From a bacterium (GTDB lineage: Bacteria > UBA4055): 64,000 nt of DNA. Positions 24,754 through 45,159 of this stretch are shown here, piece after piece. Numbering within the stretch: position 1 is the stretch's first letter; every line of letters starts with the position of its first letter. The DNA lies in assembly GCA_029559475.1 (NCBI GenBank), contig JAKQBN010000030.1, forward strand, positions 10,756 to 74,755, read 5' to 3'. The position numbers were made by a program, and so were the translations under genes. The notes beneath the pieces are model-generated. The model searched no databases and was not told where the DNA came from. It saw only the letters and a program-made list of their open reading frames with translations.

Positions 24754-25140
24754 CGACATAAGTAAAAGACGAGTGATATATTTTTATGAGCAGGAACGCA
24801 TCCTCGCTTTATCGTTTGAACGAGCCGTATATCCGGAAAAAAAATATCAAAGATTGTGCCGGTACGATTCAGATCCAAATAATCATATGATTAATGCTGA
24901 TATTTTTTTGGAGGATGATATGCGAGTGATATTAATGCCGGCTTAGCCGTTTGCGGTCTGCTTATAAAAATGATATGACGAGTATATATCGAACAAGTAA
25001 CAAATTTATACCTGATATAATTCGTTATGGATCGATATCCGTTACATCTTCCCTTTCGCAGGTACGACACTCTTAGCAAAGAAGCGATTGAGATTAATGT
25101 ATGCAGGATGAGATCCGGAATGAAGTTATATCAGGTATAT
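24754..25140 (+). repeat. copy A of a modular intergenic repeat family (3 copies in the window), containing a conserved mini-ORF MRVILMPA with a GGAGG Shine-Dalgarno (24920-24946)
   Basis: Near-identical blocks are shared with 27021-27207 and 49276-49643. The core is tttgaacgagccgtatatccgga...tttttttggaggatgatatgcgagtgatattaatg, and the terminal block gcaggatgagatccggaatgaa is common to all three. Confidence 0.65.
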
Positions 25141-25147
25141 TGAATAA

Positions 25148-26952: not shown

Positions 26953-27020
26953 TTTAAAGAACTTTAAAATCTAAAGTAATTTACAACATTATTTTTGTGA
27001 TGTCAAGTGTTATTTTAAAT

Positions 27021-27207
27021 ATGCGAGACCGGCAGTGATTATTTGAACGAGCCTTATATCCGGAGAAAAAATATCAAAGATCGTGCCGTTACGGTTAATC
27101 TCCAAATCATCATATGATTAATGCCGATATTTTTTTGGAGGATGACATGCGAGTGATATTAATGGTTGCAGGATGAGATCCGAAATGAATATATGCCGGG
27201 TATATAG
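27021..27207 (+). repeat. copy B (shortest, internally deleted) of the modular repeat family, about 70 nt upstream of the O-methyltransferase gene
   Basis: It shares the accggcagtg(a/g)ttattt block, the tttgaacgagcc...ggaggatga(c/t)atgcgagtgatattaatg core and the gcaggatgagatccgaaatgaa block. Here the mini-ORF reads MRVILMVAG. Confidence 0.65.
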
Positions 27208-27275
27208 AATTTAATGAATTTGATAATTATATAATCATACATTATATTTAGGCCTTAATTCATGGAATAAAAGCA

Positions 27276-27908
27276 ATGGCCCGGCAGACTGAATCTTACA
27301 TAAATAAACTCCTCGACCTCAAACCGCAGAAAACGGACGGACTCTATAATGAACTCGCAGCAAAAGGACATCCCGTCATCAGGCGCGACGTAGCAATGTT
27401 CCTGTCGCAGGTCATAACTCTGTCGGAACCCGAAAAAATACTCGAAATAGGAACCAACGCCGGCTATTCTGCAATAGTCATGGCAAAAGCAATGAAAAAA
27501 GGGAAGATATATACGATCGACTACCGTGCGGACAATCATCAGAGTGCCGCGGAGAACTTCAAAAAGTTCGGAGTCGAAGACAAGATAAGTCTTCTCACGG
27601 GCTACGGGAATGACATTATAAAGGAGCTGAACGAGAATTTCGATCTGATATTCATAGATGCCGATAAAAAGGGATACGGCGCGTATCTCGATTACGCAGC
27701 CTGTCATTTAAATCCTAAAGGAGTAATAATCGCGGATAACCTGTTCTGGAAAGGCGCAGTGATCTCGGAAGAAGCAGGTGATGACCCCAGAGGCGTGACT
27801 TCATCTCTGAGAGAATTCAATAAAAAATTCGCCTCTCTGAAAGGATTTAAAACGCAGATACTATCCATCGGCGACGGACTCGGATTCGCGGTAAAGGAAG
27901 ACAGATGA
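27276..27908 (+). CDS. class I SAM-dependent O-methyltransferase (family 3, caffeoyl-CoA OMT-like)
   Basis: Motif I (LEIGTNAGYSAI) and the DLIFIDADK block are typical of cation-dependent O-methyltransferases. The product is 210 aa. Confidence 0.8.
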   Translation: MARQTESYINKLLDLKPQKTDGLYNELAAKGHPVIRRDVAMFLSQVITLSEPEKILEIGTNAGYSAIVMAKAMKKGKIYTIDYRADNHQSAAENFKKFGVEDKISLLTGYGNDIIKELNENFDLIFIDADKKGYGAYLDYAACHLNPKGVIIADNLFWKGAVISEEAGDDPRGVTSSLREFNKKFASLKGFKTQILSIGDGLGFAVKEDR

Positions 27909-28579
27909 CAGAAGAGATCGAAAAGGAAATCAGCTACGAAAACATACCTTTTGAAGAACAGAAGAAATACGGATTTTTTAAATCTTTCGGGCTCACAGTA
28001 TATATGCTCGTAAGAACCCCGTCCGATTTTTTCAGAAGAATGCACGTGAATAAAGGCCTCGGATATCCATTTATATTCTTATTAATAGTGCTGACGGTCA
28101 GCAACGTAATGAATTATATATACATTAAATATAATATTATTGAATCTCCGGCGGAACAGATCACAAAAGCTCTGGAAAGCAGTCCCGAATTAAAGACTCA
28201 GGCTGAGGTTTTCAAAAGCATGTTCGATAAAGAGGCCACCCTCTGGGATATACCCGTAAGCATATTCGCCAATTTCGGTTTCATGTTCCTTCTGGCTGCA
28301 TACTGGCATCTGATACTTCTGACGATGAAGATCGCGGGGAACGGATTCGAAGCGACTGTAAGGATATTCTGCTATTCATCGGTAATACTGCTGACATCTG
28401 TTTTTCCGATAAGCTCGCCGTTATTAAATTTCGCAGTCTATATGTGGTGGGCGTTCATTATGTATAAGGGAATATCAGAAGCGCACGAAGTATCATTGAA
28501 CCTGGCATGGAGGGGGATGACGATATCTCTATTAGCCACTATGATACCCTTTATACTTTTCGCCGCAGCTTTTTTCTGA
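27905..28579 (+). CDS. Yip1-like multi-pass membrane protein (hypothetical)
   Basis: A cytoplasmic N-terminus is followed by five hydrophobic helices. It is coupled to the O-methyltransferase gene by an ATGA overlap. Confidence 0.4.
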   Translation: MTEEIEKEISYENIPFEEQKKYGFFKSFGLTVYMLVRTPSDFFRRMHVNKGLGYPFIFLLIVLTVSNVMNYIYIKYNIIESPAEQITKALESSPELKTQAEVFKSMFDKEATLWDIPVSIFANFGFMFLLAAYWHLILLTMKIAGNGFEATVRIFCYSSVILLTSVFPISSPLLNFAVYMWWAFIMYKGISEAHEVSLNLAWRGMTISLLATMIPFILFAAAFF

Positions 28580-31500
28580 ATTTGAACGCCGCGAAAATCA
28601 TTCTGAAAAAATCACCTCTCGAAAGCATCCAGTAAGCCGCGAAATTTATAATAAATCCCATAAATATCATTATTATCGCGTTATAAACGGAAGTATTGAC
28701 TTTCATATTCAGGAACGGTACCATTTTCTCACGCGTGAATATCGGATATATGATCTTCTGATGTTTTTCAGTTTCTGTCATTAGAGGATAAGCATACGAA
28801 AGCGCTTCATACTCCATCTTAAACCTGTCATCCCCTGAAATAACCGTCCTGTGAACCTCCATATTGCCGTACTCGGACATATACCTGCGCCTGAAATCGG
28901 AAATGTCCTTCTCCAGCATCCTTTCCTTGACGGTTCTATATGACTGTATCTCTTCTTTTGATAAACCGCTTTTTTCTTTTTTAATATGCTCGTCCAATGA
29001 ATTCTGCATAATATCTTTGGCTGAATGATACGAATTATATGTATCCTGCATTACCAGCAGTCCTTCGTAAGCCCAGCGCGAAGGCATCGCCTGACAGACC
29101 TCAGGGATCGGTGAATTCTGATATATCGTCAGAGAAGTATTTAGCTCTTTATACTGGATCAGCGCTCCGCCGAATATTATCTGCGGGATGAGAATTAAGG
29201 GAATAATATTCTGCACGGCTTTTACGCTGAGCCCCGGGATCGATGATATGAAAAATCCCAGAGAGATCCCGACGGCTGAGATAACCGTCATAAAAGCAAG
29301 ATAATACAGGTGAAGTTCTCTGATCTCTAAAAACAAGAAACTGACCGTGATGAAAAGAACGTTCTGGATTGTGGCGAATATCATCTGCGTGGAGAATTTT
29401 GATACGTAATACCTTAAAAATTCGATATCCAGCATTTTCTCGCGTCTGATTATCTCCGTATCCTTGATGATCTCGTCCGAGCTGTTCGACATGGCCAGAA
29501 ATATACCGATTATGACCGTCAGAAAAAGAAAAGTAGGCAGATGGATGTTGTTATAAAGCGAATATTCACTGGCGGGAATATACCTTAAAATAAAACCGAC
29601 AACAGCTGCCAGAAGCGGAGCTTCCAGAAATGTAATTATAATATTCGATCTGTTCCGCAGCTTGTTAATAAAATTCCTTTTAAACAGAATGACGAACTGA
29701 GTTAATTTCCCTTCAAGATCGTAATTCTTTGACGGTACGTCGTTCACAATATCTTTTGTGGGTATCTTTACAGGCCTGAGCTCTTTTATGTATTCTGTAA
29801 ATTTTTCTTTCCAGAATTCCGGCTTGAATTTTCTTTCCGGCAGCACCGATCCGTCAACATCCCTTAAAGGTTCTTCGAGAGTATCAAGAAGAATGTCAGG
29901 ATCATTTTTTCCTATGCTCATGTCAGTGAAATAACTGTTGTACCTGTTGTACTGCCTGAAATACTGGATCGCGTTATAGGTGCTGCCGTAAAATGCGAGC
30001 TTTCCGCCGTGGTCAAGTATCAGAGCTTTATTGAATTTGTTGTATATTTTGTAGCCCGGCTGATGGATCACGGCGAAGATTATTTTTCCCTTTACCGCAA
30101 GCTTTTTGAGCAGTTCAACGACTTTCTCGGAATCCTTTGATGAAAGTCCTGAGGTCGGCTCGTCAAAAAAGTAAATGTTCGAATCAGACAGAAGCTCGAG
30201 TCCGATGTTCAGCCTTTTCCTTTCGCCTCCGCTCAGAACCCTTTCCGATTCCGCACCGACCTTTAAATTCATTTTATCGGAAAGACCGGTCTCCCGTATG
30301 ACGGACAGCACTCGTTCAGATATGCTTTTACCGTTGAGCTTAGGGTATCTCAGCCTCGCATTATAATACAGGTTCTCGTAAACAGTGAGATTCTCGAACA
30401 GGACATCATCCTGCGGAACGTAGCTGATGAACCGTTTTATCTTTTCATAGTATTCGAAGAAATCGAAATTATCGGTATGGATCGTGCCTTTCTGCGGTTT
30501 TATCATGCCGCACAGGATCTTTAAAAGCGTAGATTTGCCGGCTCCGCTGGGACCCATTATGCACACAAGATCGCCGTGATCGACCTCGCAGGAGATCCCG
30601 TCAACGATCTTCGTTCTATTTTTGAACGAATATTCCAGCCCTTCCACACTGTAGGTGATGTATCGGAAATATGTTTTCTCGAAAAGCCCCGCATCAAAAT
30701 TGAGCTTTAGAACATTACCCTGAATGAAAATAATGTCGCCGTTCTTCAGCCTGAACTTTTTCCGCTTCTTTACACTTCTGCCGAATATACCCGACTGCCT
30801 GTTTATCTGAAAATCCACGTTATCCCGGATTATCCAGAACGGATGCGGGCAGTCTCCAGTGTTCAGGAAATGGCTGCCGTCTTTATTCGTTATCCTGCTT
30901 TCCCACAATGATTCCGAAGCATCAGAAATATGAATTTCTGCTCCCTGATCGTTAGAAAGCCTGTATTCGTCCCTTTTACTGTCCAGCTTTATATACTCAT
31001 TGTCAAAATACTCCTGATATTTCAGCTTTCTCAGGTTGATAAAACTGTCGTTTATCTTTACGAAATCGTTAACGTTTACATATGTCTCGAATTTACATTC
31101 TCTTTCATTTACGCTTATCGAAGTTGTTTTATCGAGAGGTGTTATGATGATCTTGCAGCCTGTCATCAGAACTTTAGCCGTGCTGAAACCCTTTTTCTGT
31201 TTTTCCAGAATGATCTCTTCCGGCATGTTGTTTACGTAAAATTCCTTATCGGGATAAAGGTTGTATTTGATCTTAAGATAAAGTTTTATGTCCTCAGATT
31301 CGATAAAATAATCGTTAATCCTTATATTAGATCCGTAGATCATGCTTACAGCAGCCATCGGTTTTAACAGGCAGTTACCGGTAGAAACCGATGAATTCCC
31401 ATCCGACTTTACCATGAAATTGAAATTTCCTTCATTGAAAAGAATGACTCTCAGACCTTCAAAAGGCAGAAATATATCCGAAGCCTCCTTCTCATCTGAA

Positions 31501-32006
31501 AAATAGAGAAACTTCATCCTTGAGCCTGAATATTTTGACGGAGATATAGAACCGCTCAGATATAGCTCTTTTCCCATTTCAAAATCGGCCTGATCGATAC
31601 CGAGAATGGCGGAAACCTTTCTTCCCGTTTCGGTTTTCAGCCTCGAAACGTTCTGAATATCAAGAAATTCGAGTATCTTGAAAAAAACGAACAGCTTTTC
31701 GCCGTATGAGATGCCGCTGTATTTGCTCTGACTGAAGTTTTTTAAAGTCAGTTTCTGATTTACGTAATCATTGAATCTGTCGAAAAGGTAAAAAGCTATG
31801 CTGTCGGGATAGTTCATCCAGTAGAATTCGAGTATATAGGACCGTTCATCTTCGGTAACTTCACCATCTATCTGAGCTGTCGCTGCGAAAAGTTTTGTAA
31901 AAAATATCAGCTTTGATTCTTCGATATTTTTTAAAGTTCCTGTATCGGGAGGCGTTCCTTTTTTCTTATAGTCCAGATATCTCTGAAGATGTACAGGCAG
32001 TCCCAT
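28551..32006 (-). CDS. fused ABC transporter (ABCG/White-like NBD then ABC-2 permease) with a roughly 460-aa N-terminal extension containing a TerB-like segment
   Basis: Walker A (GPSGAGKST), the signature motif (LSGGERKRLNIGLELL), Walker B (IYFFDEPTSGL) and the H-loop (VIHQPGYKIYNKF) are present. Six C-terminal transmembrane helices follow, and the N-terminus has a TerB-like AxxxDGEVTEDER motif. Confidence 0.75.
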   Translation of the reverse strand: MGLPVHLQRYLDYKKKGTPPDTGTLKNIEESKLIFFTKLFAATAQIDGEVTEDERSYILEFYWMNYPDSIAFYLFDRFNDYVNQKLTLKNFSQSKYSGISYGEKLFVFFKILEFLDIQNVSRLKTETGRKVSAILGIDQADFEMGKELYLSGSISPSKYSGSRMKFLYFSDEKEASDIFLPFEGLRVILFNEGNFNFMVKSDGNSSVSTGNCLLKPMAAVSMIYGSNIRINDYFIESEDIKLYLKIKYNLYPDKEFYVNNMPEEIILEKQKKGFSTAKVLMTGCKIIITPLDKTTSISVNERECKFETYVNVNDFVKINDSFINLRKLKYQEYFDNEYIKLDSKRDEYRLSNDQGAEIHISDASESLWESRITNKDGSHFLNTGDCPHPFWIIRDNVDFQINRQSGIFGRSVKKRKKFRLKNGDIIFIQGNVLKLNFDAGLFEKTYFRYITYSVEGLEYSFKNRTKIVDGISCEVDHGDLVCIMGPSGAGKSTLLKILCGMIKPQKGTIHTDNFDFFEYYEKIKRFISYVPQDDVLFENLTVYENLYYNARLRYPKLNGKSISERVLSVIRETGLSDKMNLKVGAESERVLSGGERKRLNIGLELLSDSNIYFFDEPTSGLSSKDSEKVVELLKKLAVKGKIIFAVIHQPGYKIYNKFNKALILDHGGKLAFYGSTYNAIQYFRQYNRYNSYFTDMSIGKNDPDILLDTLEEPLRDVDGSVLPERKFKPEFWKEKFTEYIKELRPVKIPTKDIVNDVPSKNYDLEGKLTQFVILFKRNFINKLRNRSNIIITFLEAPLLAAVVGFILRYIPASEYSLYNNIHLPTFLFLTVIIGIFLAMSNSSDEIIKDTEIIRREKMLDIEFLRYYVSKFSTQMIFATIQNVLFITVSFLFLEIRELHLYYLAFMTVISAVGISLGFFISSIPGLSVKAVQNIIPLILIPQIIFGGALIQYKELNTSLTIYQNSPIPEVCQAMPSRWAYEGLLVMQDTYNSYHSAKDIMQNSLDEHIKKEKSGLSKEEIQSYRTVKERMLEKDISDFRRRYMSEYGNMEVHRTVISGDDRFKMEYEALSYAYPLMTETEKHQKIIYPIFTREKMVPFLNMKVNTSVYNAIIMIFMGFIINFAAYWMLSRGDFFRMIFAAFKFRKKLRRKV

Positions 32007-32016
32007 TATTTATTCC

Positions 32017-33402
32017 TTATTCCTGATTCTTTACCAAAAGACCTACGGTCTCCACATGGAAAGTATGTGGGAACATATCTACCGGCTGAACTTTTATAAG
32101 CTTGTATCCGCCTTCCTCAAGAAGCTGGACATCACGCCCGAATGTTGACGGGTTGCAGGACACATAAACGATCTTCGGCACTTTAGAACCTATAAGTGCT
32201 TCAACTACCTTGGGATGCATTCCGTCTCTTGGCGGATCGGTTATTATCACATCGAAATTTTCCTTAAAAAGTTCGCCGTCCTTTGCAAGTTTCAGCATAT
32301 CGCCGGAAACGAATTTACAGTTAGATATCCCGTTCAGCCCTGCGTTTCTCTTTGCGTTGATAACGGCGTTCTCAACAAGCTCGAATCCCGTGACGCTTTT
32401 TACGCGTCCGCTTATGTAAAGAGCTATCGTACCTACACCGCAGTAAAGGTCGAGAACATTCTCAGAACCGTTAAATCCCGCGTAATCGATAACTGTATCG
32501 TAAAGTTTAGTCACCTGCTCCGGATTGACCTGGAAGAAAGTGTCGCAGCTCAGTTCGAATTTCAAACCGCCTATCGTATCGATCAGCGTTTCGGTTCCCC
32601 GTATAAGAATGCTTTCCTCTCCGTAGGCTGTGGATGACAACCCTGAATTTATCGTATTAATGAAAGAAGCTAATTCGGGGAATTCCGAGAACAGCCTGTC
32701 TGCGATATCTTTGATCTCTTTTAATTTTCTTGATTTTGTAATCAGATTGATCATTATCCGGTCGTCATTCGTTTTTCTGATGACCATATATCTTAAAAAT
32801 CCGGTATGCTGAACAACATCATAAGGTTCCAGCCCCGATGATCTAAGCGTTTTTCTCAGTGATTGATAAACTCTGTTCATCAGATCGGTCTGCAGATTGC
32901 AATGATCGATATCTATAGCCTTGCTGAAAAATTTCGGAGCGTGAAATCCGAGCGTGAATCCTTCTTCCTCCAACCCTTTTTCTTCTTCTGTATAATATCT
33001 CAGTTTCGAGAATGTAAATTCTGTTTTGTTACGGTAATTATTATGAATCTTACATTTTATTATAGGGTGCATTTCGCAGTCAATTACTTTTCCGATCCTG
33101 CGAACGCAGTCCTTCACGACCTCTTCCTTTATGTAAGTCTGATAGTCGTACTCCACGTCTCTGAGCTTACAGCCTCCGCAGGTGGGATAATACCGGCAGT
33201 CGGATTCTTTTCTGTGAGGGGATCTTTCGATTATCTCTTTGGCGACAGCCTCGATGTATCCTGACTTTCTTTTCTTAACATAAGCTTGTACCTTTTCGCC
33301 GGGCAGAGCTCTTTCGAGCATCACCTTTCTGCCTTCATATTCGGACAGGCATTTCCCGCCGTATATCGGCTTTCCGGCCGTTAATTCGATCAATTGTTTC
33401 AT
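32017..33402 (-). CDS. rlmD: 23S rRNA (uracil-5)-methyltransferase RlmD/RumA (TRAM + SAM MTase, Fe-S cysteines)
   Basis: The N-terminal TRAM-like region and the Cys cluster (CRYYPTCGGCKL) are present. C-terminal Rossmann methyltransferase motifs (LDLYCGVGT, DPPRDG) follow. Confidence 0.85.
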   Translation of the reverse strand: MKQLIELTAGKPIYGGKCLSEYEGRKVMLERALPGEKVQAYVKKRKSGYIEAVAKEIIERSPHRKESDCRYYPTCGGCKLRDVEYDYQTYIKEEVVKDCVRRIGKVIDCEMHPIIKCKIHNNYRNKTEFTFSKLRYYTEEEKGLEEEGFTLGFHAPKFFSKAIDIDHCNLQTDLMNRVYQSLRKTLRSSGLEPYDVVQHTGFLRYMVIRKTNDDRIMINLITKSRKLKEIKDIADRLFSEFPELASFINTINSGLSSTAYGEESILIRGTETLIDTIGGLKFELSCDTFFQVNPEQVTKLYDTVIDYAGFNGSENVLDLYCGVGTIALYISGRVKSVTGFELVENAVINAKRNAGLNGISNCKFVSGDMLKLAKDGELFKENFDVIITDPPRDGMHPKVVEALIGSKVPKIVYVSCNPSTFGRDVQLLEEGGYKLIKVQPVDMFPHTFHVETVGLLVKNQE

Positions 33403-33485: not shown

Positions 33486-34838
33486 TCATACATTTATTTT
33501 GGAATGATCCCTTTTATACTTCAGCATTTTTGCAATTAAGATCATTCCTATTATGCCTGCTGAAATATCCGTTATGAGCCTTGCTGAAAAGATTCCCCTT
33601 ATGCCGAACAAACTGCTTCCGAGTATCGAAAGAGGTATCAGTAAAACAAGGATCCTTACAATATTGAGCACTGTGGCAAGGACCGGCTTGTGGATTCCGG
33701 TCAGGAAAAATCCGCTGTAGCGGTGGATCTCCATCATTCCATAGCCGAACGATATTGTACGGACATACAGAACGAATATTTCTATGACTTTAGGATCATT
33801 TGTAAATATCTGCGCTAAGTAAGGCGCGCTTGTATAAAATACGGCGGCTATGAAGAATCCGTAATAGAATGCGAACTTTATTGAATATATTTTAGCCTGA
33901 TGTATCCTGTCGAACCTGCCGGCGCCGTAATTCTGGCTGACGAACGGCACTAATGACATTCCGAGAGCCATCGGGATCACGAAAGCGAACATCTCCATCC
34001 TTCCGGCCGCGCTTGCGGCGGCTACGGCTTCAATACCGTGTCTGCTTATAAGCGCAGTAACGACCGCAGCGGATAACGGCATCAGCATCATGCTTATGCT
34101 GCCAGGAATGGCAAATCCCATTATCTTTTTGCATGACCTGAAAAAATGACCCGTTTCAGGCTCTTTAAGTTTAAGCAGTTTGTGCTTTTTAAAAAGAAGG
34201 TAGAACAGCCAAACAGAAGTTACTGCCTGTCCGATCACGGTTGCGAGCGCAGCTCCTAAAATGCCCATCGCCGGAAGTCCGAACCATCCGAATATGAACA
34301 TCGGATCGAGTACGCAGTTTAGAAGCGCTCCGGTAGCCATAAAAGCGCTCGCCTGCTTTGATTCTCCCAACGATATCATGATCCCGTTGCCCATCATCGG
34401 AAAAGCCATGAACACGGCTCCGAAATACCAGGTGTTCATATAACTTTTTATTAACGGCATCGTAGTCTCGTCTGCTCCAAGCTTCGAGAAAATGTAATCT
34501 ACAGAAAAATAACCCGCCGCGGCCAGCAGTACCGAAAGGATCACGACAAGAATAACTCCGTGAGTAACGAGCCTGGATGCTGAAGCGTGATCTTTGCGCC
34601 CGAGAGCGTGGGATGTCAGAGTTGTTACTCCGGTACCTATTCCGCCGGCTATAAAAGTCAGCATCATAACGACAGGCATAGTAAATCCCATCGCGGCCAA
34701 CGGAACAGTGCCCAGCCTAGACACGAAATAAGTGTCGGCGAGGTTATATGTATTCATCGCGAAGGTTCCCACAAGCATCGGGAAAGCCATCTTGAAAAGT
34801 GTTCGTTTTACTGATAATTTTGCGACTAATTCAGACAT
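33486..34838 (-). CDS. MATE family efflux transporter
   Basis: The 450-aa product has 12 predicted transmembrane helices and the typical MATE N-terminal start (LFKMAFPMLVGTFAMNTYNLADTYFV). Confidence 0.85.
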   Translation of the reverse strand: MSELVAKLSVKRTLFKMAFPMLVGTFAMNTYNLADTYFVSRLGTVPLAAMGFTMPVVMMLTFIAGGIGTGVTTLTSHALGRKDHASASRLVTHGVILVVILSVLLAAAGYFSVDYIFSKLGADETTMPLIKSYMNTWYFGAVFMAFPMMGNGIMISLGESKQASAFMATGALLNCVLDPMFIFGWFGLPAMGILGAALATVIGQAVTSVWLFYLLFKKHKLLKLKEPETGHFFRSCKKIMGFAIPGSISMMLMPLSAAVVTALISRHGIEAVAAASAAGRMEMFAFVIPMALGMSLVPFVSQNYGAGRFDRIHQAKIYSIKFAFYYGFFIAAVFYTSAPYLAQIFTNDPKVIEIFVLYVRTISFGYGMMEIHRYSGFFLTGIHKPVLATVLNIVRILVLLIPLSILGSSLFGIRGIFSARLITDISAGIIGMILIAKMLKYKRDHSKINV

Positions 34839-36967: not shown

Positions 36968-38209
36968 CTAATCTTCAAATATGATCTGCGGTTTACCTTT
37001 ATTCTGTTCGACCCTGATAATTTCAAGAATTTTATCATACGAGTACGATCCTTTCAGCTTCGGATTGAACCTGCATCGTACCGAAACTTCATTTTTCTCA
37101 ACTTCCTTATCGCCGACGACAAGTATCAGAGGAATTTTCCGCAATTCCGCATTCCTGATCCGGCTGCTCAGAGAATCATTATTGTCTGAAAGTTCTACAC
37201 GCATATCTTCCTCTTTCAGCTTGCGCACCAGTTTTTTGCAGTGATCCGAACGGTTACTGTTTATATCGATAACCATTACCTGCATCGGAGACAGCCAGAA
37301 CGGCAGACTGCCCGAATAGAATTCCAGCAGTACGGCTATGAACCTTTCAATACTTCCGAACAAAGCACGGTGCACAAGATACGGAACATGGAATTTTCCG
37401 TCAGAACCGCGGTATTCCATCTTGAATTTACCGGGCAGGTTGAAATCGAACTGAACAGTGCTGCACTGCCATTCATTTCCCGCGAAATCGATTATCTTGA
37501 TATCTATTTTAGGCCCGTAAAAAGCACCGCCGCCTTCATCGATCTCATATTCCAGTCCGACTTCATTTACAGCTTTTTTCAAATGTTCAACCGCCATTTC
37601 CCAGTCTGAATCACTGCCTATAGCTTTCTCGGCCGGTTTAGTAGCTATATAAGCCTTGAACTTATTCAGCCCGAAAGCCCTGAGAACATAAAGGCTGAAC
37701 TTGAGAGCACGGAGTATCTCGCCGTAGATCTGATCCTTACTGCAGATAATATGCGCGTCATCCTGAACAAAACCTCTCACCCTTTTCAGCCCGTGCAGAG
37801 CACCGGAGAACTCATACCGGTAAACAGTGCCGAATTCCGCATACCTGACCGGCAGTTCCTGATATGACCTCTGCCTGTTCTTAAAGATCATCAGATGAAA
37901 AGGACAATTCATCGGCTTAAGATAATATTCTTCCTCATCTATCTTTATCGGAGCATACATATTTTCCTTAAAGAAATCCAGATGCCCTGAAGTTTTCCAC
38001 AAACCTGCCTTACCGATATGAGGAGAATAAACCCATTCATAGCCGTTTTGCAAATGAGCCTTCTGACTGAACCTTTCAAGCTCGTACCTTATGACACTTC
38101 CGTTCGGGTGAAAAGACACAAGACCCGCTCCGACTTCCTCTGAAAAACTATACAGATCAAGCTCTTTTCCAAGTTTGCGATGATCCCTGTTTTCGATAAT
38201 ATTCTTCAT
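36968..38209 (-). CDS. thrS: threonine--tRNA ligase paralog lacking N-terminal TGS/editing domains (catalytic class II core + anticodon-binding domain only)
   Basis: The product begins RDHRKLGKELDLY, which corresponds to about residue 240 of canonical ThrRS. Class II motifs and a C-terminal anticodon-binding domain are present. Upstream stop codons occur in all frames, so the 413-aa length is genuine. Confidence 0.75.
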   Translation of the reverse strand: MKNIIENRDHRKLGKELDLYSFSEEVGAGLVSFHPNGSVIRYELERFSQKAHLQNGYEWVYSPHIGKAGLWKTSGHLDFFKENMYAPIKIDEEEYYLKPMNCPFHLMIFKNRQRSYQELPVRYAEFGTVYRYEFSGALHGLKRVRGFVQDDAHIICSKDQIYGEILRALKFSLYVLRAFGLNKFKAYIATKPAEKAIGSDSDWEMAVEHLKKAVNEVGLEYEIDEGGGAFYGPKIDIKIIDFAGNEWQCSTVQFDFNLPGKFKMEYRGSDGKFHVPYLVHRALFGSIERFIAVLLEFYSGSLPFWLSPMQVMVIDINSNRSDHCKKLVRKLKEEDMRVELSDNNDSLSSRIRNAELRKIPLILVVGDKEVEKNEVSVRCRFNPKLKGSYSYDKILEIIRVEQNKGKPQIIFED

Positions 38210-38240
38210 TTTTTATTCCTTTAATTTAATTTTTTACAAT

Positions 38241-38273
38241 AAAAAAAGCCGCTGAACCCGAGGGTCCGGCGGC
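38241..38273 (-). terminator. strong rho-independent terminator located 32 nt upstream of the thrS-like start codon (candidate attenuator/T-box terminator)
   Basis: On the minus strand the sequence is GCCGCCGGACCCTCGGGTTCAGCGGC followed by TTTTTTTATT. A GC-rich 26-nt hairpin like this is unusual in this AT-rich DNA. Confidence 0.55.
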
Positions 38274-38415
38274 TTATTAACAAACCGTTTTTAGATTATG
38301 TTAAATTATACCAACCCCCTCCGGGTTCGAAACTCGTAGGTGGTCGTGGTCAGTGCGATTCCTATATGTCGTAAATTAATTTTCATTTTCTTACTTTTTT
38401 TTTAATTCCGACCGC

Positions 38416-38444
38416 AAATTACTACAATTATTTTTTATTGTCAA
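38416..38444 (-). promoter_or_regulatory. candidate sigma70 promoter for the thrS-like leader
   Basis: On the minus strand, TTGACA is followed by a 17-nt spacer and TAATTT. This would give a leader of about 190 nt that contains an ACG-ACC-ACC run. Confidence 0.3.
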
Positions 38445-38461
38445 GCGATAAAACGATCCGT

Positions 38462-39397
38462 TTATTTATACTCATTTAGCTTGCTTAATAATTCAACAGC
38501 CTCGATCCCGAACTTAGAAAATCCGAACCATTTCTTTCCAAGATCTTTTAATGATGCACCGAAATGATACACATCCGAGTCGTCAATAATTATAAATCTG
38601 TCGTGCGATTTTTTGAATATTCTTATTTCAATCGGAAAATACTGCTCGCTGAATTTTTCTATGTCAAGTTTTAGCTGTGGTGAAACCGATTGAGTCAGGA
38701 TCGTTACTTTTACATTCTTGTTTACTTTTACGAGAAGAACCAGAACAGTATCGTCAATATAATTGTCTATGATCAACACCGATTTCTCAGCTCTTCGAAA
38801 CAAATCAGACACAAACTTGTATGCATCGAATATCTGACCGTCAAAGAATATCCCTTGCTTTGGCTGTAATTCCTTACTTTCAAGCGCATTGAATAGTTTA
38901 TCTAATTTAATATCATTTTCAATCAATTTTACTTCAACTCGATCCAATCTCTGAAATACTTGAGCATTTGACTGTATGAATTTACGCATCTCGACAAATG
39001 CTTTCATAATTTTCACACTGATTATTATTGCCGTTTCGCTCCTTAATACAGCTGATAACATTGCAACACCCTGTTCTGTGTAAACGAATGGCAAATATTT
39101 TGTGTGCCTACCTTTTGCATCCTCTATGATCACAATTTGTGATCTTAAAGAGTTCTTGTGCCTATTTTCGCTCTTTATACAAGATTTTATATTTTCATAT
39201 TCTGATTCATCAAGTTGGAAACAAAAATCATCAGGAAACCTTTCCTTGTTCCTTTTAACAGCCTGATTAAGAATCCTTGTCTCCACTCCGTAAAGTTCAG
39301 CCAAATCTCTATCCAGCATCACCTGATATCCCCTAATAGAATAAATCCTGTCTCGGATTACCCCCTCATCAAATTTTTCCAATTCATTACCTGTCAT
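38462..39397 (-). CDS. ORF6N (KilA-N-like) domain-containing protein
   Basis: The N-terminal ORF6N signature is IRDRIYSIRGYQVMLDRDLAELYGVETRILNQAVKRNKERFPDDFCFQL. The internal ATG at 39397 is preferred because GGGAG lies upstream. Confidence 0.7.
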   Translation of the reverse strand: MTGNELEKFDEGVIRDRIYSIRGYQVMLDRDLAELYGVETRILNQAVKRNKERFPDDFCFQLDESEYENIKSCIKSENRHKNSLRSQIVIIEDAKGRHTKYLPFVYTEQGVAMLSAVLRSETAIIISVKIMKAFVEMRKFIQSNAQVFQRLDRVEVKLIENDIKLDKLFNALESKELQPKQGIFFDGQIFDAYKFVSDLFRRAEKSVLIIDNYIDDTVLVLLVKVNKNVKVTILTQSVSPQLKLDIEKFSEQYFPIEIRIFKKSHDRFIIIDDSDVYHFGASLKDLGKKWFGFSKFGIEAVELLSKLNEYK

Positions 39398-39436
39398 AAA
39401 TAATTCTCCCGATAACATTTTAGGCAATATAACACG

Positions 39437-39465
39437 AGAAGAGTGCCATCTAATGGCACTCTTCT
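39437..39465. terminator. perfect 13-bp inverted repeat hairpin (terminator or protein-binding palindrome) between the GNAT and ORF6N genes
   Basis: The arms are agaagagtgccat and atggcactcttct with a cta loop. No clean T-run follows on either strand. Confidence 0.4.
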
Positions 39466-39488
39466 ATAAAATATGAATTATTTTTTTA

Positions 39489-40109
39489 TTATTTTACGAG
39501 AGGTATCTCATCTCCGAAAACATCGAAAATTTTTATATCATTGTCTTCAAATCCGTGATACTCGCTTCTGAACAGAACCCAGACCATAAAATCCCTGAAC
39601 TCTCCTTCAAAAGCCGTATTGACCCTCTTCCTAATACATTCCAGATTAAAACCGAGCTTTTTTGGGACATTCTGACTTTTCTGATTTTCGGGAACACATT
39701 TGATCTCGAACCTGTCTATTTCTTCATTCATGAAACCGACTTTGATCAGCGCTTTTGAAATTTCCGTGACTATACCCTTTCCGCATTCTTCCTTATCGAT
39801 CCAGTATCCGATCTCGTAGGCATACTTACCGTTGTGAGTATGAAGTCCCGTACCGCCTATCACTTTAGATTCGTCCCTGTTAAAGATACCATACACAAAA
39901 TCCTTTGAAGCATCGAAATTCGACCTGAACCTGCGCAATATCTCAATCCTGTCCTCAACAGTAAGAGGCTCTTTATGTACGAAGGGCATAAATTCTTTAA
40001 GATGATCCACATTCTTCGTGATCGAAGCGTGAAGCAGCTTCGCGTCAGCCGGATTCCAGCATCTTAGAACGCATCGCTTTGTTTCAATTCTATAAGATGG
40101 ATATTTCAT
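39489..40109 (-). CDS. GNAT family N-acetyltransferase (RimJ/RimL-like)
   Basis: The RimL-like start (MKYPSYRIETKRCVLR) and GNAT motif A (ECGKGIVTE) are present. The ATG at 40109 is preferred because an AGAGGT Shine-Dalgarno lies upstream. Confidence 0.7.
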   Translation of the reverse strand: MKYPSYRIETKRCVLRCWNPADAKLLHASITKNVDHLKEFMPFVHKEPLTVEDRIEILRRFRSNFDASKDFVYGIFNRDESKVIGGTGLHTHNGKYAYEIGYWIDKEECGKGIVTEISKALIKVGFMNEEIDRFEIKCVPENQKSQNVPKKLGFNLECIRKRVNTAFEGEFRDFMVWVLFRSEYHGFEDNDIKIFDVFGDEIPLVK

Positions 40110-40187
40110 TTTTACCTCTTTGCGCCATTTTTTAACATGACTAGTCAACAGATTTCTTGTATATATAGACTGGTGTGATACACAATT

Positions 40188-40590
40188 TTATTTGTGATTG
40201 AACTTAGTAAAATATTCGTCAATTTCTGGCCTTAATTCAATTCCTACTCGCTCAAAGATGTCCAACAAATCATTATAAGTACCTTCGCCACCTAAAAAAT
40301 CCCAGAATTCATGAGCTACTTTTAATTCATTCTCAAGATCAAGCATACCAGCCATAGTCCATCTGGTATACGGTTTCGGCTCATAAGGATTATATGGAAT
40401 TGCAATTAAAGTATTTACATTGGCTTGAGGATTATCAGCAAGTACGCAAGCAGTCCATTGAAGTAATGTTCTTTTAAATTCAATAAATCCGCCTTTATTA
40501 GGCTTTGCAGTTTTTATATCGAATAAAAATAATTCTCCTGAAATAGTGACATTTGTCCCTTCGCGAAGTGTTATATTACAAATATAAGGC
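40188..40590 (-). pseudogene. start-less ORF remnant (about 133 codons, no ATG/GTG/TTG), possible fragment of a PD-(D/E)XK-like nuclease
   Basis: I translated this by hand: ...TLREGTNVTISGELFLFDIKTAKPNKGGFIEFKRTLLQW...EFWDFLGGEGTYNDLLDIFERVGIELRPEIDEYFTKFNHK*. Stops occur in all frames upstream, and it abuts the divergent start of the HTH-repeat gene. Confidence 0.35.
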
Positions 40591-40606
40591 TAAACTGGAG
40601 GGGAAA

Positions 40607-41452
40607 ATGACAAAAAAGGAAACAGAGCTTCAAAGATACATAGATAAGACAAGCGAGGGAGAGTTTCTGTACGAGTTGGCAAATTCGTATGAGCTCTCCC
40701 CGATTTTAAGTAAAAACATCCTTCAAACAGCCAAAACCTGCCTTCTCCAAAGCAAAGTACTTCAAGCCGGACAGATAGAATATCACTGCGTAAGTATCGA
40801 TGAAAAAAGCGGGAAGCAGATGCTTGATATGAGCAAGATAAAAGTTATTCTGACTCTAAAGGACGAAATCGAAGATATAACTACTTTAAGCGTGGAAGGC
40901 AGAAGCGTATATCGTCAGAATAAAATTCAAAGGATGACTGATGAGGCTATAGCGCAAAACGGCATATTAAGTCAGGAAGATCTTAGTATGCTGCTGAATG
41001 TAAGCGTGAGAACGATCAAGCGTGATATTCGTAGAATAAAGATCAGGAATATTGAAGTGATCACCCGCGGGACCTATCACAATATAGGAAGGGGACAAAC
41101 GCACAAGACACGAATAATCAGCCTATTTCTTGAAGGATGCACATATACTGACATCAAGTGGAAAACGCATCACAGCACAGGATCAATCAAGAGGTATCTT
41201 GATAGCTTCGGAAAAGTTCTGATGTGTGTGGAGTATGGTATTAAGGACAAGTCAGAGATACGATCTGTAACAAATCTGTCTGAATATCTGATATGCCAGT
41301 ACCTGGATATACTCAAATCTGCAGAAAAAAGTAAAGTGAAATCAGAAAACTTGGATATGCTTAAACAGCAACTGTCATATAGATATGGTTCAAAAAAAAC
41401 GATCGTTTACGATGGTCTGAGAGCGGAAGCTACGACAGGAGGCTGGAAATGA
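40607..41452 (+). CDS. hypothetical protein with three tandem helix-turn-helix-like modules (paralog 1)
   Basis: The ATG at 40607 is preferred because GGAGGGGAAA lies upstream. Repeated modules include LSQEDLSMLLNVSVRTIKRDI, YTDIKWKTHHSTGSIKRYL and SEIRSVTNLSEYLICQYL. Confidence 0.5.
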   Translation: MTKKETELQRYIDKTSEGEFLYELANSYELSPILSKNILQTAKTCLLQSKVLQAGQIEYHCVSIDEKSGKQMLDMSKIKVILTLKDEIEDITTLSVEGRSVYRQNKIQRMTDEAIAQNGILSQEDLSMLLNVSVRTIKRDIRRIKIRNIEVITRGTYHNIGRGQTHKTRIISLFLEGCTYTDIKWKTHHSTGSIKRYLDSFGKVLMCVEYGIKDKSEIRSVTNLSEYLICQYLDILKSAEKSKVKSENLDMLKQQLSYRYGSKKTIVYDGLRAEATTGGWK

Positions 41453-42246
41453 ATCTGAACAATATACGGGACAGATATGAAAGCATAAACAAACGGAACT
41501 TCAGATCAGCTTTGATAAGCCTTTTAGAAAACGATTATAAAATTTTAGGATCAAGAAAAATCTTATCCATGCTTGCAGAGGACATTGAACAGCTTTATAA
41601 CGAATTTAATCCTAAAATATCTGAAGTCGGCTTTGGTGAGATCGTATTCAGGACAACAAAAGATGATGGTCAAAGACAAAGTTACGGTAAGAAGACAGAA
41701 GATTATGCGTCAACGACAGTGATACTGCCATTGATAACAAAAGATGATGTTGAGCGCAGAATTTATTTCCGCAAAGGCGACAGAAACAGTAATTACGAGC
41801 ACAGAGAGTCAAGGGACATAGAAACTATGGTAAGGCTAATCAAAAGCGCAAAGGAGCAAGGCGGATTACTCACCGGAGCGGAAGTAAGTGTTCTGATGAA
41901 CAGAAGCCTCAGTACCATCAGAAAATATCTTGATGCTTACAGGAATAAAACAGGTGAAATACTTCCGCTGAAAGGATATGTGCTTGATCAAGGCAGCCTG
42001 CCTACTCATAAAGGCATAATCGTATCGCTTTATGAGCAGGGAATATCTCCGTCCGATATTGTTTTAAAAACTTCACACAGCCAAAGCGCGGTTGATCGCT
42101 ACATCGGGCAATACGATCAGATTAAGAAGCTCATTAAAAAAGGTTTAAATGAGCGTGAAATTAAAGATATTACGAGAAGGTCATTGAAAATCATCAGAGA
42201 ATATGTTAAATTGTATAAACAATTAAATCCGGAAGTGAAAAAATGA
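41449..42246 (+). CDS. hypothetical protein with three tandem helix-turn-helix-like modules (paralog 2)
   Basis: It aligns by eye with paralog 1 over about 130 residues (GxLxxxExSxLxNxSxxTIxxxL...THKxxIxSL...DIxxKTxHSxxxxxRYx). It is coupled to paralog 1 by an ATGA overlap. Confidence 0.5.
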   Translation: MNLNNIRDRYESINKRNFRSALISLLENDYKILGSRKILSMLAEDIEQLYNEFNPKISEVGFGEIVFRTTKDDGQRQSYGKKTEDYASTTVILPLITKDDVERRIYFRKGDRNSNYEHRESRDIETMVRLIKSAKEQGGLLTGAEVSVLMNRSLSTIRKYLDAYRNKTGEILPLKGYVLDQGSLPTHKGIIVSLYEQGISPSDIVLKTSHSQSAVDRYIGQYDQIKKLIKKGLNEREIKDITRRSLKIIREYVKLYKQLNPEVKK

Positions 42247-42249
42247 AGA

Positions 42250-42729
42250 TTATTTACTACCGCGCTTCGCTTGCTTACTTCTCAGGGGACAAATGTCACT
42301 AATGTAAAAAGATTCAAGCATGACATCTACTTTTGTAGCCTTAACAACTTTCATCTTACCTTTCTGGCAAACTTTTCTTATCGCATTGATTTCTTCGGGT
42401 TTACAAGGTTTTACATTTGCTGCGGTTAAATCATCCATAATATCTTGAATTACTCTTTGAGCATCTTCACTGATATTAACACCAGCTTTAGCTTGTGCCG
42501 TTGCGTTTTTGAAATTTTTACTGGCTAATGCGAGTGCGACAGGTTCAAATATGCTGGTACCAAAATTTGTATTCAATGATTGAATAAAAGAGAACAATGC
42601 GATCCTGTCACTGCCTAGTAGTCTTGTATGGAACGGCATTGAAGCTGGTTCTGGATTATAATTTTTGAATTTATGCCTCAAGCTATTTCTTAAGACATCT
42701 TCTATTTGTTTTATTTGATTACTATCCAT
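42250..42729 (-). CDS. hypothetical 159-aa protein co-transcribed downstream of the DNA methyltransferase (candidate restriction/specificity partner)
   Basis: It starts 33 nt after the MTase stop on the same strand. I did not recognise any motif family. Confidence 0.35.
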   Translation of the reverse strand: MDSNQIKQIEDVLRNSLRHKFKNYNPEPASMPFHTRLLGSDRIALFSFIQSLNTNFGTSIFEPVALALASKNFKNATAQAKAGVNISEDAQRVIQDIMDDLTAANVKPCKPEEINAIRKVCQKGKMKVVKATKVDVMLESFYISDICPLRSKQAKRGSK

Positions 42730-42762
42730 TTCAAGTTATCTCAAGTAAGTTAGGGTTTAGAA

Positions 42763-44388
42763 TTACTTCCTCTTCAAGTGAAATATTATTTCCGAGTAGG
42801 CACTTTTATCTCTTTCGGTACGGTTGAGCACTGGTCTTTTGAACTGATTTACAATTTTCATATCTGCATTATCTGCGATAGTTGGATATAAATTATATTT
42901 ATCGTTTGCTACGAGAAACACATCATAATCCTTTACAAAGTACTTTTTTACATTGTTCAAAACATCGCTTATGCCTTTAACATAGCTATCTTTAGCTTCT
43001 CGGCCTTGACCTTTGAAAAGAGGTCCGATTTCAAGCTCGTCATTCCTGTCGAATCCGAAAAGATCATAAGCGTAGGCATGCTGTTCATGATAATCAATTA
43101 AACCTACATAAGGAGGTGATGAAAATATCCCGTTTATTTTCTTTTTTGAAACAAGTTTTGAAAATTCAGGATCCAATTTTTTTAAACCGTTGACTATATC
43201 AATCGTTCTGCTGTCACCGGTCAGGCAAGTATGAAATGTTTCTTTTTTTAGCTTTGAGTAATCTTCTAAGCGCTTTACAGTGTCTTTAGCGTATCTTTCC
43301 CACCAGCTCAAAATTGAAAATAAAGGTTTGCATATTTTACCGTGTTTTGAACAGTAATATGTCGTCGTTACAGGCTCGAAAAGAGTTGCAAGATCTGCAT
43401 GAGTAGTTGCTCTGCAACTTCTGATAGTCCTGCTTAATATTACGCTTACAATTTCTTTCGTATCCGAATTAGCTATTTTCTTTATCTCATTGTGCACTAT
43501 TTCAATTTCTTCTCTGATGTGCTCAGAATACCATTTGTCGAGAAATGAGCCTTCTTTGCTTTGTCGCTGCTTGATTTTATACTCAGCTACTAATTTTTTG
43601 AAGATCGGTAAGAACTCTTTTTCTTTTTCAGCTCCATAAGTATCTTCATCTACCATTTTACGCTTAATATTGTAACGGTATTCTGGAGACGGAAAATGTT
43701 TTAGATTAAAATCATATAGCTCGTGTAATAATTTTTCTTCAAATTCTACAGTATGATTATCTTTCAAGAATAATTTTAGTTTTTTAGAAATTTCGCTTAT
43801 AACTTTTAGCACTTCATCATAGTTATAGTCTTTAACTTTACATTTAGCTATCATAGAATTGAATGCTGAAACATCAATCCCTATTGAATGGATTCCAAGT
43901 TCGCAAGCTTGTACCATTGTAGTGCCGCTGCCTGAAAAAGGATCGAGTACTATATCACCTTGTTTGAAGTAAATCTCTTTTTTGAAATCATCAACATGCG
44001 CGTCTAAAAAATACTCAACCAGTTGAGGTATAAATTTTCCTTTGTAGGGATGTAATCTGTGAACATGTTTTGTTGTGTCTGATTCTTTATACTGATCAAA
44101 TGACAATGCCCAATTAAGATCATTTCCAAGTTCTTTTTTCCATGTATCTACTCTGGATTCCTTAAAACCCGCATAATATTCGGCAAGCTCTTCTTTAACA
44201 ACCATAGTCGATCCATTTTCGCCAATTTTTTTTATTCTACCGTACTGGACTAAATAAGATATATTTGAAGGTGTTACATTTTTCCCTAGTAAATCTGAAG
44301 CCCAATCGCTTGCTTCCTTTATTGACAATAATTCTGACATTTTCTTTACCTGCTTCATGTGCAATTTATCTGTCTTTTCAATCTTCAT
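42763..44388 (-). CDS. DNA methyltransferase (N6-adenine or N4-cytosine type; FxGSGTT motif I and SPPY motif IV) with N-terminal HTH-like segment
   Basis: The HPYKGKFxPQLVEYFL...GDIVLDPFSGSGTTMVQACELG motif lies at about aa 120-165, and IFSSPPYVGLIDY at about aa 420. The N-terminal 70 aa are HTH-like. Confidence 0.8.
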   Translation of the reverse strand: MKIEKTDKLHMKQVKKMSELLSIKEASDWASDLLGKNVTPSNISYLVQYGRIKKIGENGSTMVVKEELAEYYAGFKESRVDTWKKELGNDLNWALSFDQYKESDTTKHVHRLHPYKGKFIPQLVEYFLDAHVDDFKKEIYFKQGDIVLDPFSGSGTTMVQACELGIHSIGIDVSAFNSMIAKCKVKDYNYDEVLKVISEISKKLKLFLKDNHTVEFEEKLLHELYDFNLKHFPSPEYRYNIKRKMVDEDTYGAEKEKEFLPIFKKLVAEYKIKQRQSKEGSFLDKWYSEHIREEIEIVHNEIKKIANSDTKEIVSVILSRTIRSCRATTHADLATLFEPVTTTYYCSKHGKICKPLFSILSWWERYAKDTVKRLEDYSKLKKETFHTCLTGDSRTIDIVNGLKKLDPEFSKLVSKKKINGIFSSPPYVGLIDYHEQHAYAYDLFGFDRNDELEIGPLFKGQGREAKDSYVKGISDVLNNVKKYFVKDYDVFLVANDKYNLYPTIADNADMKIVNQFKRPVLNRTERDKSAYSEIIFHLKRK

Positions 44389-44437
44389 AAACGTTTCTAA
44401 TTTACTCTAAACAAGTTGTTTTTACAAACAAAATTCC

Positions 44438-44620
44438 TTATTTATTTTCAAGTATTGTTTCATTTATAGAAGATTCTATAGCATCAAACCAATCTATTTT
44501 TTCTGCAATCACATCTTTTATCTTTAAAATTTCAGACGAATTTAATTTTCTTCCCAATACTTCTTCAGATACATTCTGAACATCTTCATCTGTTAATTCA
44601 TAAACAACATTCTTTCTCAT
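44438..44620 (-). CDS. hypothetical small acidic protein (60 aa)
   Basis: The ORF lies between ispF and the MTase gene on the same strand. No motif was recognised. Confidence 0.25.
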   Translation of the reverse strand: MRKNVVYELTDEDVQNVSEEVLGRKLNSSEILKIKDVIAEKIDWFDAIESSINETILENK

Positions 44621-44650
44621 ATAGATATTAACTCCTCATTTTTTTTCAAT

Positions 44651-45139
44651 TTATTTCTTCCTTACCCCTTTCTCCAACATGACCACAGCCTGAGCGGCGA
44701 TTCCTTCGCCTCTGCCTTCGAAGCCGAGTTTTTCGGTGGTGGTGGCTTTGACCGATATGTTTTTGATTTCAGTTTGGAGTAATTTGGCTATGACCGAGCG
44801 CATTTGGTCAATGTGGTCTTTGAGCTTTGGTTGTTCGCAGATGACTACCGCGTCGATGTTGTTTATTATATAACCTTCAGCTTTGATGAGCGCGTAAACC
44901 TTTTCTAAGAGTATTCTGCTGTCTATGTTCTTGTATGAGCTGTCGTTGTCGGGGAAATGTTTTCCGATGTCGCTCAAGGCTAAGGCTCCGAGCATGGCGT
45001 CCATTATTGCGTGGAGAAGCACATCCGCGTCCGAGTGGCCGAGCAGTCCTTTTTCATAAGGAATTTCGATCCCGCCGATAATGCATTTTCTGCCTTCGAC
45101 CAGCTTGTGAACATCGTATCCTATACCTATTCTGTACAT
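44651..45139 (-). CDS. ispF: 2-C-methyl-D-erythritol 2,4-cyclodiphosphate synthase
   Basis: The motifs [10 protein letters not shown] and [12 protein letters not shown] are present. The product is 162 aa. Confidence 0.9.
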
Positions 45140-45159
45140 AGATCCCTCTTAAATTAAAA

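Follow-up and report, generated by a model that had tools for sequence, protein, structure and literature searches.

The question raised by this locus is what kind of protein is encoded by a long ATP-binding cassette (ABC) gene in which about 450 residues precede the pump in the same chain. The gene lies on the minus strand of a 64,000-nucleotide (64-kb) stretch of contig JAKQBN010000030.1 (assembly GCA_029559475.1, GTDB lineage Bacteria; UBA4055), called the window below, and its product is a polypeptide of 1151 amino acids (aa) (Table 1). The protein is described here as an ABCG-type pump combined with a TerB-like domain, three pseudo-FHA (forkhead-associated) modules and a large outer loop, a structural description in which we have high confidence. 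For the mechanism proposed further below the chances are somewhat short of even, and the explanation as a whole, structure and mechanism, is regarded as reasonably probable.

On the basis of motifs, profile searches and structure models, residues 449-1151 were confirmed as an ABCG/White-type half-transporter composed of a nucleotide-binding domain (NBD) and a transmembrane domain (TMD), with a predicted ABCG (type V) fold. The full set of catalytic ABC motifs was present, i.e. Walker A (GPSGAGKS at 485), Q-loop (VPQ at 530), signature (LSGGE at 591), Walker B (IYFFDEP at 611), D-loop (SGLSS at 619) and H-loop (IHQP at 647), and the set was invariant in the family; the extended D-loop SGLSSKDSE, nearly invariant, is a mark of the family. 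Pfam ABC_tran (residues 469-619, 1.9e-30) lies ahead of ABC2_membrane (769-967, 3.5e-19), which places the NBD N-terminal to the TMD in one chain. The NCBIfam ABCG/White model TIGR00955 matched residues 461-959 with an E-value of 6e-79. Because the score of 266 bits was far under the curated model cut-off of 736 bits, the pump is placed by sequence outside the eukaryotic pigment-permease subfamily, as a distant bacterial relative with the ABCG fold. The best sequence matches in PDB across both NBD and TMD were ABCG1 (7fdv, 2e-44 over residues 446-959) and ABCG2. A full-length AlphaFold2 (AF2) model, built from 25 sequences, reached a predicted local distance difference test (pLDDT) score of 82.9 and a predicted template modelling (pTM) score of 0.71, and the top 50 matches of this model in a Foldseek search of PDB were all ABCG proteins, with an E-value of 6e-24 for ABCG5/8 and target TM-scores of 0.73-0.79 to ABCG5/8, ABCG1, ABCG2 and AtABCG25. 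Six hydrophobic transmembrane (TM) segments and a re-entrant helix were found in the membrane domain by both hydropathy and AF2, the modelled order being a connecting (elbow) helix, TM1-TM5, the re-entrant helix (969-989), TM6 (1105-1129) and a C-terminal amphipathic helix. The complete ABC motifs with an IHQP H-loop of the ABCG/White family and the six-helix ABC-2 permease, both read from the letters in the initial annotation, were confirmed by these analyses.

The reading frame itself is intact and conserved and coincided exactly with the single chain of the initial annotation; it starts with an ATG codon, 10 nt past the stop codon of the co-directional upstream gene. As the initial annotation had itself cautioned, the N-terminal 450 residues could belong to a separate gene that a frameshift in sequencing or assembly has merged with the ABC gene, and the sole basis for this is the prior that unusually long fusions can be artefacts. 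Against it, an identical 1151-aa protein was called both on a 141.8-kb Joint Genome Institute (JGI) metagenome contig that matches the window and in an independent Logan assembly, an identical junction between arm and ABC part was present in more than 40 full-length homologs of different phyla, and AF2 sets the last strand of the third arm module directly beside the first strands of the NBD. The artefact was rejected because the identical protein is found in an independent assembly and the fused layout recurs in dozens of relatives on independent contigs, and the probability left to it is vanishingly small.

The arm was also modelled separately as residues 1-465, from 39 sequences (pLDDT 86.8, pTM 0.80), and this model consists of eight helices (5-159) followed by three beta modules (ca. 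165-250, 254-333 and 336-446). The helical part, residues 1-160, was confirmed as TerB-like by way of its relatives only. In profile comparisons Pfam TerB matched the same columns in 19 of the 39 sequences of alignment A1 (the query and 38 homologs), at best with 6.1e-11, and hhalign related the query domain at 98% (E-value 8e-14) to the N-terminal domain of the family members from Bacteroidota, which is TerB-positive. The hidden Markov model (HMM) of the arm in turn matched, over positions 36-151, the PDB entry 2ou3 ("tellurite resistance protein of COG3793") with an E-value of 0.015. The A-x-x-x-DGEVTEDER motif, from which a TerB-like segment had initially been proposed, is located at residues 43-55, and column statistics indicated conservation of its acidic part D47-G48-E49-x-x-E52-x-E54. 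TerB domains were reportedly predicted to bind metals by Anantharaman et al. in 2012.

Behind the helical part, three modules were resolved by the AF2 model and by comparison among the modules, and not the two further beta-rich regions counted initially. By hhalign, modules 1 and 3 were related at 94% (1e-7), modules 1 and 2 at 85.5%, and modules 2 and 3 at 78%, and the TerB part, included as a negative control, gave 0.1%. The best Foldseek matches of the arm were the tandem FHA domains of EssC/YukB (9qks_H, 3.7e-4; 1wv3 and 5fwh, 2.9e-3), at a sequence identity to EssC of 9-12%, and the remaining matches were mostly FHA domains as well (Ki-67, TIFA, MDC1, ArnA, EmbR and FhaA). Searched against PDB at E≤10, the arm HMM returned five matches with E-values of 0.002-0.29, i.e. 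the TerB-family entry 2ou3 and four FHA proteins (CT664, 3gqs, 0.0021; EmbR, 0.032; and Ki-67 twice). Module 3 was aligned to the canonical FHA domains of bacterial FHA-ABC relatives at 84% (E-value 7.5e-6). The AlphaFold modelling recommended in the initial annotation, where FHA- or SMAD-like beta-sandwiches were to be looked for, returned three FHA-like sandwiches.

Canonical FHA identity was rejected, as Pfam FHA (PF00498) gave no match at E≤0.01 in the query or in any of the 39 A1 sequences and the Arg, Ser and His that bind phosphothreonine are absent. In module 3, Asn352 stands where FHA domains have the phosphate-binding Arg, and this holds for 39 of 39 sequences. The Ser position of the A1 columns held Gly (22), Lys (4), Arg (3) and Ser (2), and the His position Leu (22) and Glu (8); the Gly before the Arg position was mostly Ser, and the structural "D-I" past the loop was retained. 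In module 1, D177 and K247 were invariant. The loss of the phosphothreonine-binding residues from these FHA-like modules is shown by the alignment columns. The FHA-like nature of the arm was thus supported by fold and profile, and the canonical motifs, which the initial annotation had been unable to verify, are indeed lost. A long disordered Thr-rich linker between modules was found in none of the AF2 models, in which the modules abut with high confidence: the sole low-confidence stretch of the arm is a loop of module 3 (402-415), and the last strand of this module (441-446) runs straight into the first NBD strands (451-476), the arm being rigidly attached to the pump.

A second mark of the family is the enlarged extracytoplasmic loop between TM5 and TM6 (EL3), which by topology lies outside the cytoplasm, with the basic C-terminus directed inward. 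Measured from the re-entrant helix to TM6, EL3 comprised 116 aa in the query and 101-157 aa in the long-form relatives, about 200 aa in the Bacteroidota form, and 29-69 aa in 12 of the 13 FHA-ABC relatives. The AF2 model places in this loop long helices (994-1011, 1017-1046 and 1049-1072) followed by a beta hairpin. The remaining FHA-ABC relative (P0079) had about 354 aa inserted at this place, and the proteins P0080 and P0081 were similar to it in overall length (1111-1122 aa for the three); extracytoplasmic domains seem to be gained with particular ease in the TM5-TM6 outer loop.

The architecture is not rare and represents a widespread family in environmental bacteria. When the arm profile (N-terminal 445 positions) was searched against 1.84 billion cluster representatives, 541 representatives were obtained at E≤1e-3, 209 at 1e-10 and 95 at 1e-30. 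All the full-size matches were of 1050-1300 aa, the size expected for the ABC fusion, and for this reason the arm is considered to occur essentially only fused to the ABC pump; the shorter matches stop at the alignment end and look like contig-end fragments. The full-length homologs sharing the N-terminal region were 1130-1230 aa long. This long form was present in Candidatus Delongbacteria (57-74% identity), Cloacimonadota, Kapaibacterium/Ignavibacteria, and another large group. By a genome scan this group was recognised as Verrucomicrobiota, with many carriers (Chthoniobacterales, Spartobacteria, Terrimicrobiaceae, Akkermansiaceae, Luteolibacter and Prosthecobacter), and the scan added single metagenome-assembled genomes (MAGs) of Desulfovibrionaceae, Alphaproteobacteria, Limnocylindria, Armatimonadota and Hydrogenedentales. 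A short form of ca. 1011-1040 aa, found in Bacteroidota (Cyclobacteriaceae, Reichenbachiella, Fulvivirga, Bacteroidales and others), has the same TerB-like domain and the same pump with a single beta module. As this module is nearest to module 1 (69% by hhalign), the long form looks like an elaboration by module duplication. The names given in databases were automatic only, for example "ATP-binding cassette domain-containing protein" or [quoted passage not shown], and full-text literature searches returned no paper on the TerB plus ABC architecture or on bacterial ABCG families of such kind. That this might be a common and documented architecture with an assigned function, as the initial annotation had allowed, is therefore correct for its commonness but not for the function, none being assigned beyond automatic annotation.

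The family is not categorically new, since FHA-armed ABCG-like bacterial exporters are already known from Rv1747 (FHA-FHA-ABC-ABC2), which shares the layout of cytoplasmic FHA-type modules in front of an NBD and a six-helix ABC-2 domain in one chain. Bacterial FHA+ABC+ABC2 proteins were also the nearest relatives outside the family (253 bits), and homology to the FHA domains of these proteins was detectable in module 3. The kinase PknF acts on Rv1747 as a regulator by way of the FHA domains of the transporter, which contains a disordered linker and has been associated with lipooligosaccharide or phosphatidylinositol mannoside (PIM) export (PMC7761784). Compared with Rv1747, which has two FHA domains, the query has three FHA-like modules and a TerB-like domain; the phosphothreonine-binding residues, the disordered linker and an adjacent kinase are missing, and the outer loop is much larger. 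The likeness to Rv1747 pointed out in the initial annotation is one of layout, and the defining features of Rv1747 are not shared. The family is a distinct and widespread variant of the FHA-armed ABCG-like exporters that combines a TerB-like domain and three pseudo-FHA modules with a large outer loop and lacks a kinase. In one relative of 1141 aa (P0097), a protein kinase domain (PF00069/PF07714) was observed together with FHA, ABC and ABC-2 in the same chain, i.e. the kinase-FHA-pump circuit of Rv1747 and PknF as a single polypeptide.

The NBD-before-TMD order, the IHQP H-loop and the re-entrant helix after TM5 are common to the query and the eukaryotic ABCG half-transporters (ABCG1, ABCG2, ABCG5/G8 and AtABCG25). 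In contrast to these, the query carries the 450-aa N-terminal arm, the D-loop SGLSSKDSE and a helical insertion in EL3, which in eukaryotic ABCG proteins is short and disulfide-bonded. The arm in turn resembles EssC/YukB, the type VIIb secretion ATPase (1wv3, 5fwh and 9qks), a membrane ATPase whose tandem FHA-like sandwiches likewise face the cytoplasm. The FHA domains of EssC also are without phosphothreonine-binding residues, and the only role assigned to them by the authors was in producing stable, active protein (PMC4925161). EssC is, however, an FtsK/SpoIIIE-type ATPase with two modules and no TerB-like domain, whereas the query is an ABC transporter with three modules. With the TerB family (PF05099; 2ou3; DjlA) the protein family shares the helical domain and its aDG...E acidic motif, and in the membrane protein DjlA the TerB-like domain faces the cytoplasm (PMC11709261), as in the query. 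The query domain differs from that family in its fusion with FHA-like modules and an ABC transporter, and in having no ter operon context.

ABCG1, ABCG5/8 and ABCG25 are exporters of sterols, lipids and hormones. The query protein is an inner-membrane half-transporter of the ABCG (type V) class, and by analogy with this class it would most likely dimerise as a homodimer and perform ATP-driven export or flipping (floppase activity). The compound transported would be hydrophobic, amphipathic or lipid-like and probably belongs to the envelope. The arm would be a regulatory or scaffolding device, and it may act, like the degenerate tandem FHA domains of EssC, through phosphorylation-independent contacts, made with a partner protein, with the membrane, or with the NBDs of the transporter itself. 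The TerB-like domain could serve as a sensing or membrane-proximal element, the arm as a whole could control dimerisation of the NBDs or clustering of pumps, and the long outer helices might pass the substrate on to the periplasm.

Several points weigh against this explanation. For the query alone, Pfam TerB (PF05099) remained below threshold (residues 39-93, E-value 0.11; score 13.2 bits, cut-off 24.4 bits), and the role of the TerB-like domain is undefined even in DjlA (PMC11709261). Modules 1 and 2 were only weakly aligned to FHA domains directly (14-24% by hhalign), and their putative FHA-likeness draws on the internal homology and on the fold matches to tandem EssC domains. The predicted geometry between domains comes from monomer AF2 models only, and the homodimeric state and the direction of transport are presumed on the strength of the ABCG fold. 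An operon conserved across loci, which could point to a pathway, was not found when ORFs (open reading frames) within 4.5 kb of the gene were clustered for 50 loci.

A more far-reaching proposal, which we consider fairly unlikely, is that the family constitutes an undescribed class of ABCG exporters in diderms of the Fibrobacterota-Chlorobiota-Bacteroidota (FCB) and Planctomycetota-Verrucomicrobiota-Chlamydiota (PVC) groups. A TerB-like sensor and a rigid, phospho-independent pseudo-FHA stack would gate the NBDs, and a long periplasmic helical stalk would send a lipid or envelope precursor toward the outer membrane, in Bacteroidota jointly with an adjacent lipoprotein. If true, this would add a new route of envelope-lipid trafficking and a new mode of ABC regulation.

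Among the competing explanations, a multidrug pump for the general efflux of xenobiotics, expressed together with the MatE gene upstream of it and with an arm of structural importance only, is distinctly unlikely. The JGI name of the relatives ("ABC-type multidrug transport system"), the location of the co-directional MatE gene as the second gene upstream, and the drug pumps ABCG2 and Cdr1 among the best PDB matches would agree with it; the name, however, reflects COG transfer and not experiment, the MatE gene was missing at the one other Delongbacteria locus examined and in other clades, and a conserved 450-aa arm with an enlarged outer loop points to a specific, regulated role. A true Rv1747-type transporter is quite improbable. 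Its modules would bind phosphothreonine on the pump or on a partner, and a Ser/Thr kinase encoded at a distance would activate the pump, possibly by clustering. The identical order of FHA-like modules, ABC and ABC-2 speaks for it, as do the FHA+ABC+ABC2 proteins as next-best relatives, the homology of module 3 to their FHA domains, and the regulation of Rv1747 by PknF through FHA domains (PMC7761784). This is opposed by the invariant Asn in place of the phosphate-binding Arg and the unconserved Ser and His positions, by the lack of Pfam FHA matches in all 39 A1 sequences, and by modules that abut without a long disordered linker. Moreover, no Ser/Thr kinase gene was present at the query locus, at the loci of four relatives, or among the clustered neighbours of the 50 loci, and tblastn searches of the window with a Hanks kinase domain and a canonical FHA domain gave nothing convincing.

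Export of metal or tellurite/oxyanions as a resistance function, with the TerB-like domain sensing the metal and opening the pump, is very improbable. What favours it comes down to the TerB name, through the conserved acidic D-G-E-x-x-E-x-E motif, the annotation of relatives as "uncharacterized tellurite resistance protein B-like" and the metal binding predicted for TerB domains, but neither terC, terD, terZ nor other metal-resistance genes were found near the query locus or at the four relatives' loci, pumps of the ABCG fold are known for hydrophobic or amphipathic substrates and not for ions, and the undefined role of the TerB-like domain (PMC11709261) counts here as well. The regulated export of a hydrophobic or envelope compound remains the favoured reading, at the strength given at the outset. 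A role in phage defence was rejected separately, PADLOC having returned generic ABC-ATPase matches only.

Bacterial ABCG-like pumps have barely been studied, Rv1747, important for the virulence of M. tuberculosis, being the one well-known example. The present family indicates that the design of an FHA arm on an ABCG pump is widespread beyond Actinobacteria, here without phosphothreonine recognition and with a TerB-like domain and a large outer loop. Nothing known is overturned by it; it offers an entry point for experiments and no conceptual change, as a test case for TerB-like and degenerate FHA domains on membrane machines and as a candidate for an envelope export step in Verrucomicrobiota and Bacteroidota. 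Most of the matches are from MAGs, and carriers in cultivable genera include Chthoniobacter, Prosthecobacter, Luteolibacter and Reichenbachiella.

Table 1. Location of the ABC gene, its predicted domains, the neighbouring genes and the intergenic repeats in the window.
Feature	Position (nt)	Strand	Basis or remark
ABC gene, complete coding sequence, 1151 aa and stop	28551..32006	minus	ORF list and translation
TerB-like helical domain (eight helices), residues 1-160	31527..32006	minus	AF2 helices 5-159, profiles
FHA-like beta-sandwich module 1, residues 161-252	31251..31526	minus	AF2 strands 165-235 and helix 237-247
FHA-like beta-sandwich module 2, residues 253-335	31002..31250	minus	AF2 strands 254-323 and helix 325-333
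FHA-like module 3, residues 336-448, nearest to canonical FHA	30663..31001	minus	hhalign, family profile
ABC nucleotide-binding domain, residues 449-690	29937..30662	minus	Pfam ABC_tran, complete motifs, D-loop extension SGLSSKDSE
Membrane domain, residues 691-1151	28554..29936	minus	Pfam ABC2_membrane, hydropathy, AF2 helices, Foldseek
EL3, enlarged extracytoplasmic loop between TM5 and TM6, residues 990-1104	28695..29039	minus	AF2 secondary structure, long helices within 994-1084 and a beta hairpin
Methyltransf_3 O-methyltransferase	27276..27908	plus	Pfam 1.4e-31
Yip1 protein	27905..28579	plus	Pfam 4.9e-13
RlmD-like methyltransferase	32017..33402	minus	upstream of the ABC gene
MatE pump	33486..34838	minus	two genes upstream of the ABC gene
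Intergenic repeat, copy 1	24767-25145		
Intergenic repeat, copy 2	26994-27221		
Intergenic repeat, copy 3	49372-49650		

The O-methyltransferase and Yip1 genes overlap by ATGA and are convergent with the ABC gene, in agreement with the initial annotation and supported by Pfam. The 3′-ends of the ABC and Yip1 genes share 29 nt (28551-28579), which leaves no space for an intergenic terminator. The order of RlmD-like, ABC, Yip1 and O-methyltransferase genes was kept in one Delongbacteria genome, where a gene for an M48 peptidase interrupts it; synteny of the RlmD-like, Yip1 and O-methyltransferase genes was restricted to Delongbacteria and was not seen in Kapaibacterium, at a Verrucomicrobiota-type locus, or in Reichenbachiella.

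Among the 50 clustered loci no neighbour was common to several phyla, and only clade-specific neighbours were identified. At 10 loci (L019, L030, L032, L039, L043, L048, L054, L057, L058 and L073), an FtsH protease gene of opposite orientation was located within a few kb on the upstream side of the long-form gene; these loci are of Verrucomicrobiota except L043, which is from a Limnocylindria MAG. A 173-aa lipoprotein and a STAS protein recurred at four other loci (L005, L017, L018 and L025). In Bacteroidota, a gene for a lipoprotein of about 300 aa without Pfam match directly adjoined the short-form gene on the same strand at 10 of 14 loci, and this adjacency suggests that the lipoprotein is a functional partner of the short-form pump. 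The gene order varied, as the lipoprotein gene was upstream at five of these loci (L006, at 4873-5781; L060, L064, L070 and L079) and downstream at the others (L066, L067, L074, L078 and L082). No homologs of the Bacteroidota or Verrucomicrobiota lipoproteins were found in the window.

The repeat-family copy that the initial annotation had placed beside the ABC gene is not a direct flank of it, because the nearest copy (copy 2) is 1.3 kb from the 3′-end of the gene, behind the Yip1 and O-methyltransferase genes. All three copies contain an almost identical core of about 135 nt with a long A/T-rich hairpin (GAAAAAATATCA...TGATATTTTTTT), and the core ends in GGAGGATGATATG, which resembles a ribosome-binding site together with the start codon of a very short ORF, translated as MRVILMPA* in two of the copies. 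Covariation was nearly nil among these three copies. Rfam at gathering thresholds returned a single tRNA from the whole window and left the repeat unmatched, and for this reason the repeat is not assigned to a known RNA family. Elsewhere in the window, positions 38001-46000 had a G+C content of 0.34-0.385 as compared with about 0.41 in the remaining sequence, and the GC skew flipped sign briefly at 40-42 kb; this region of low G+C may represent an island of foreign origin or reflect a switch of strand.

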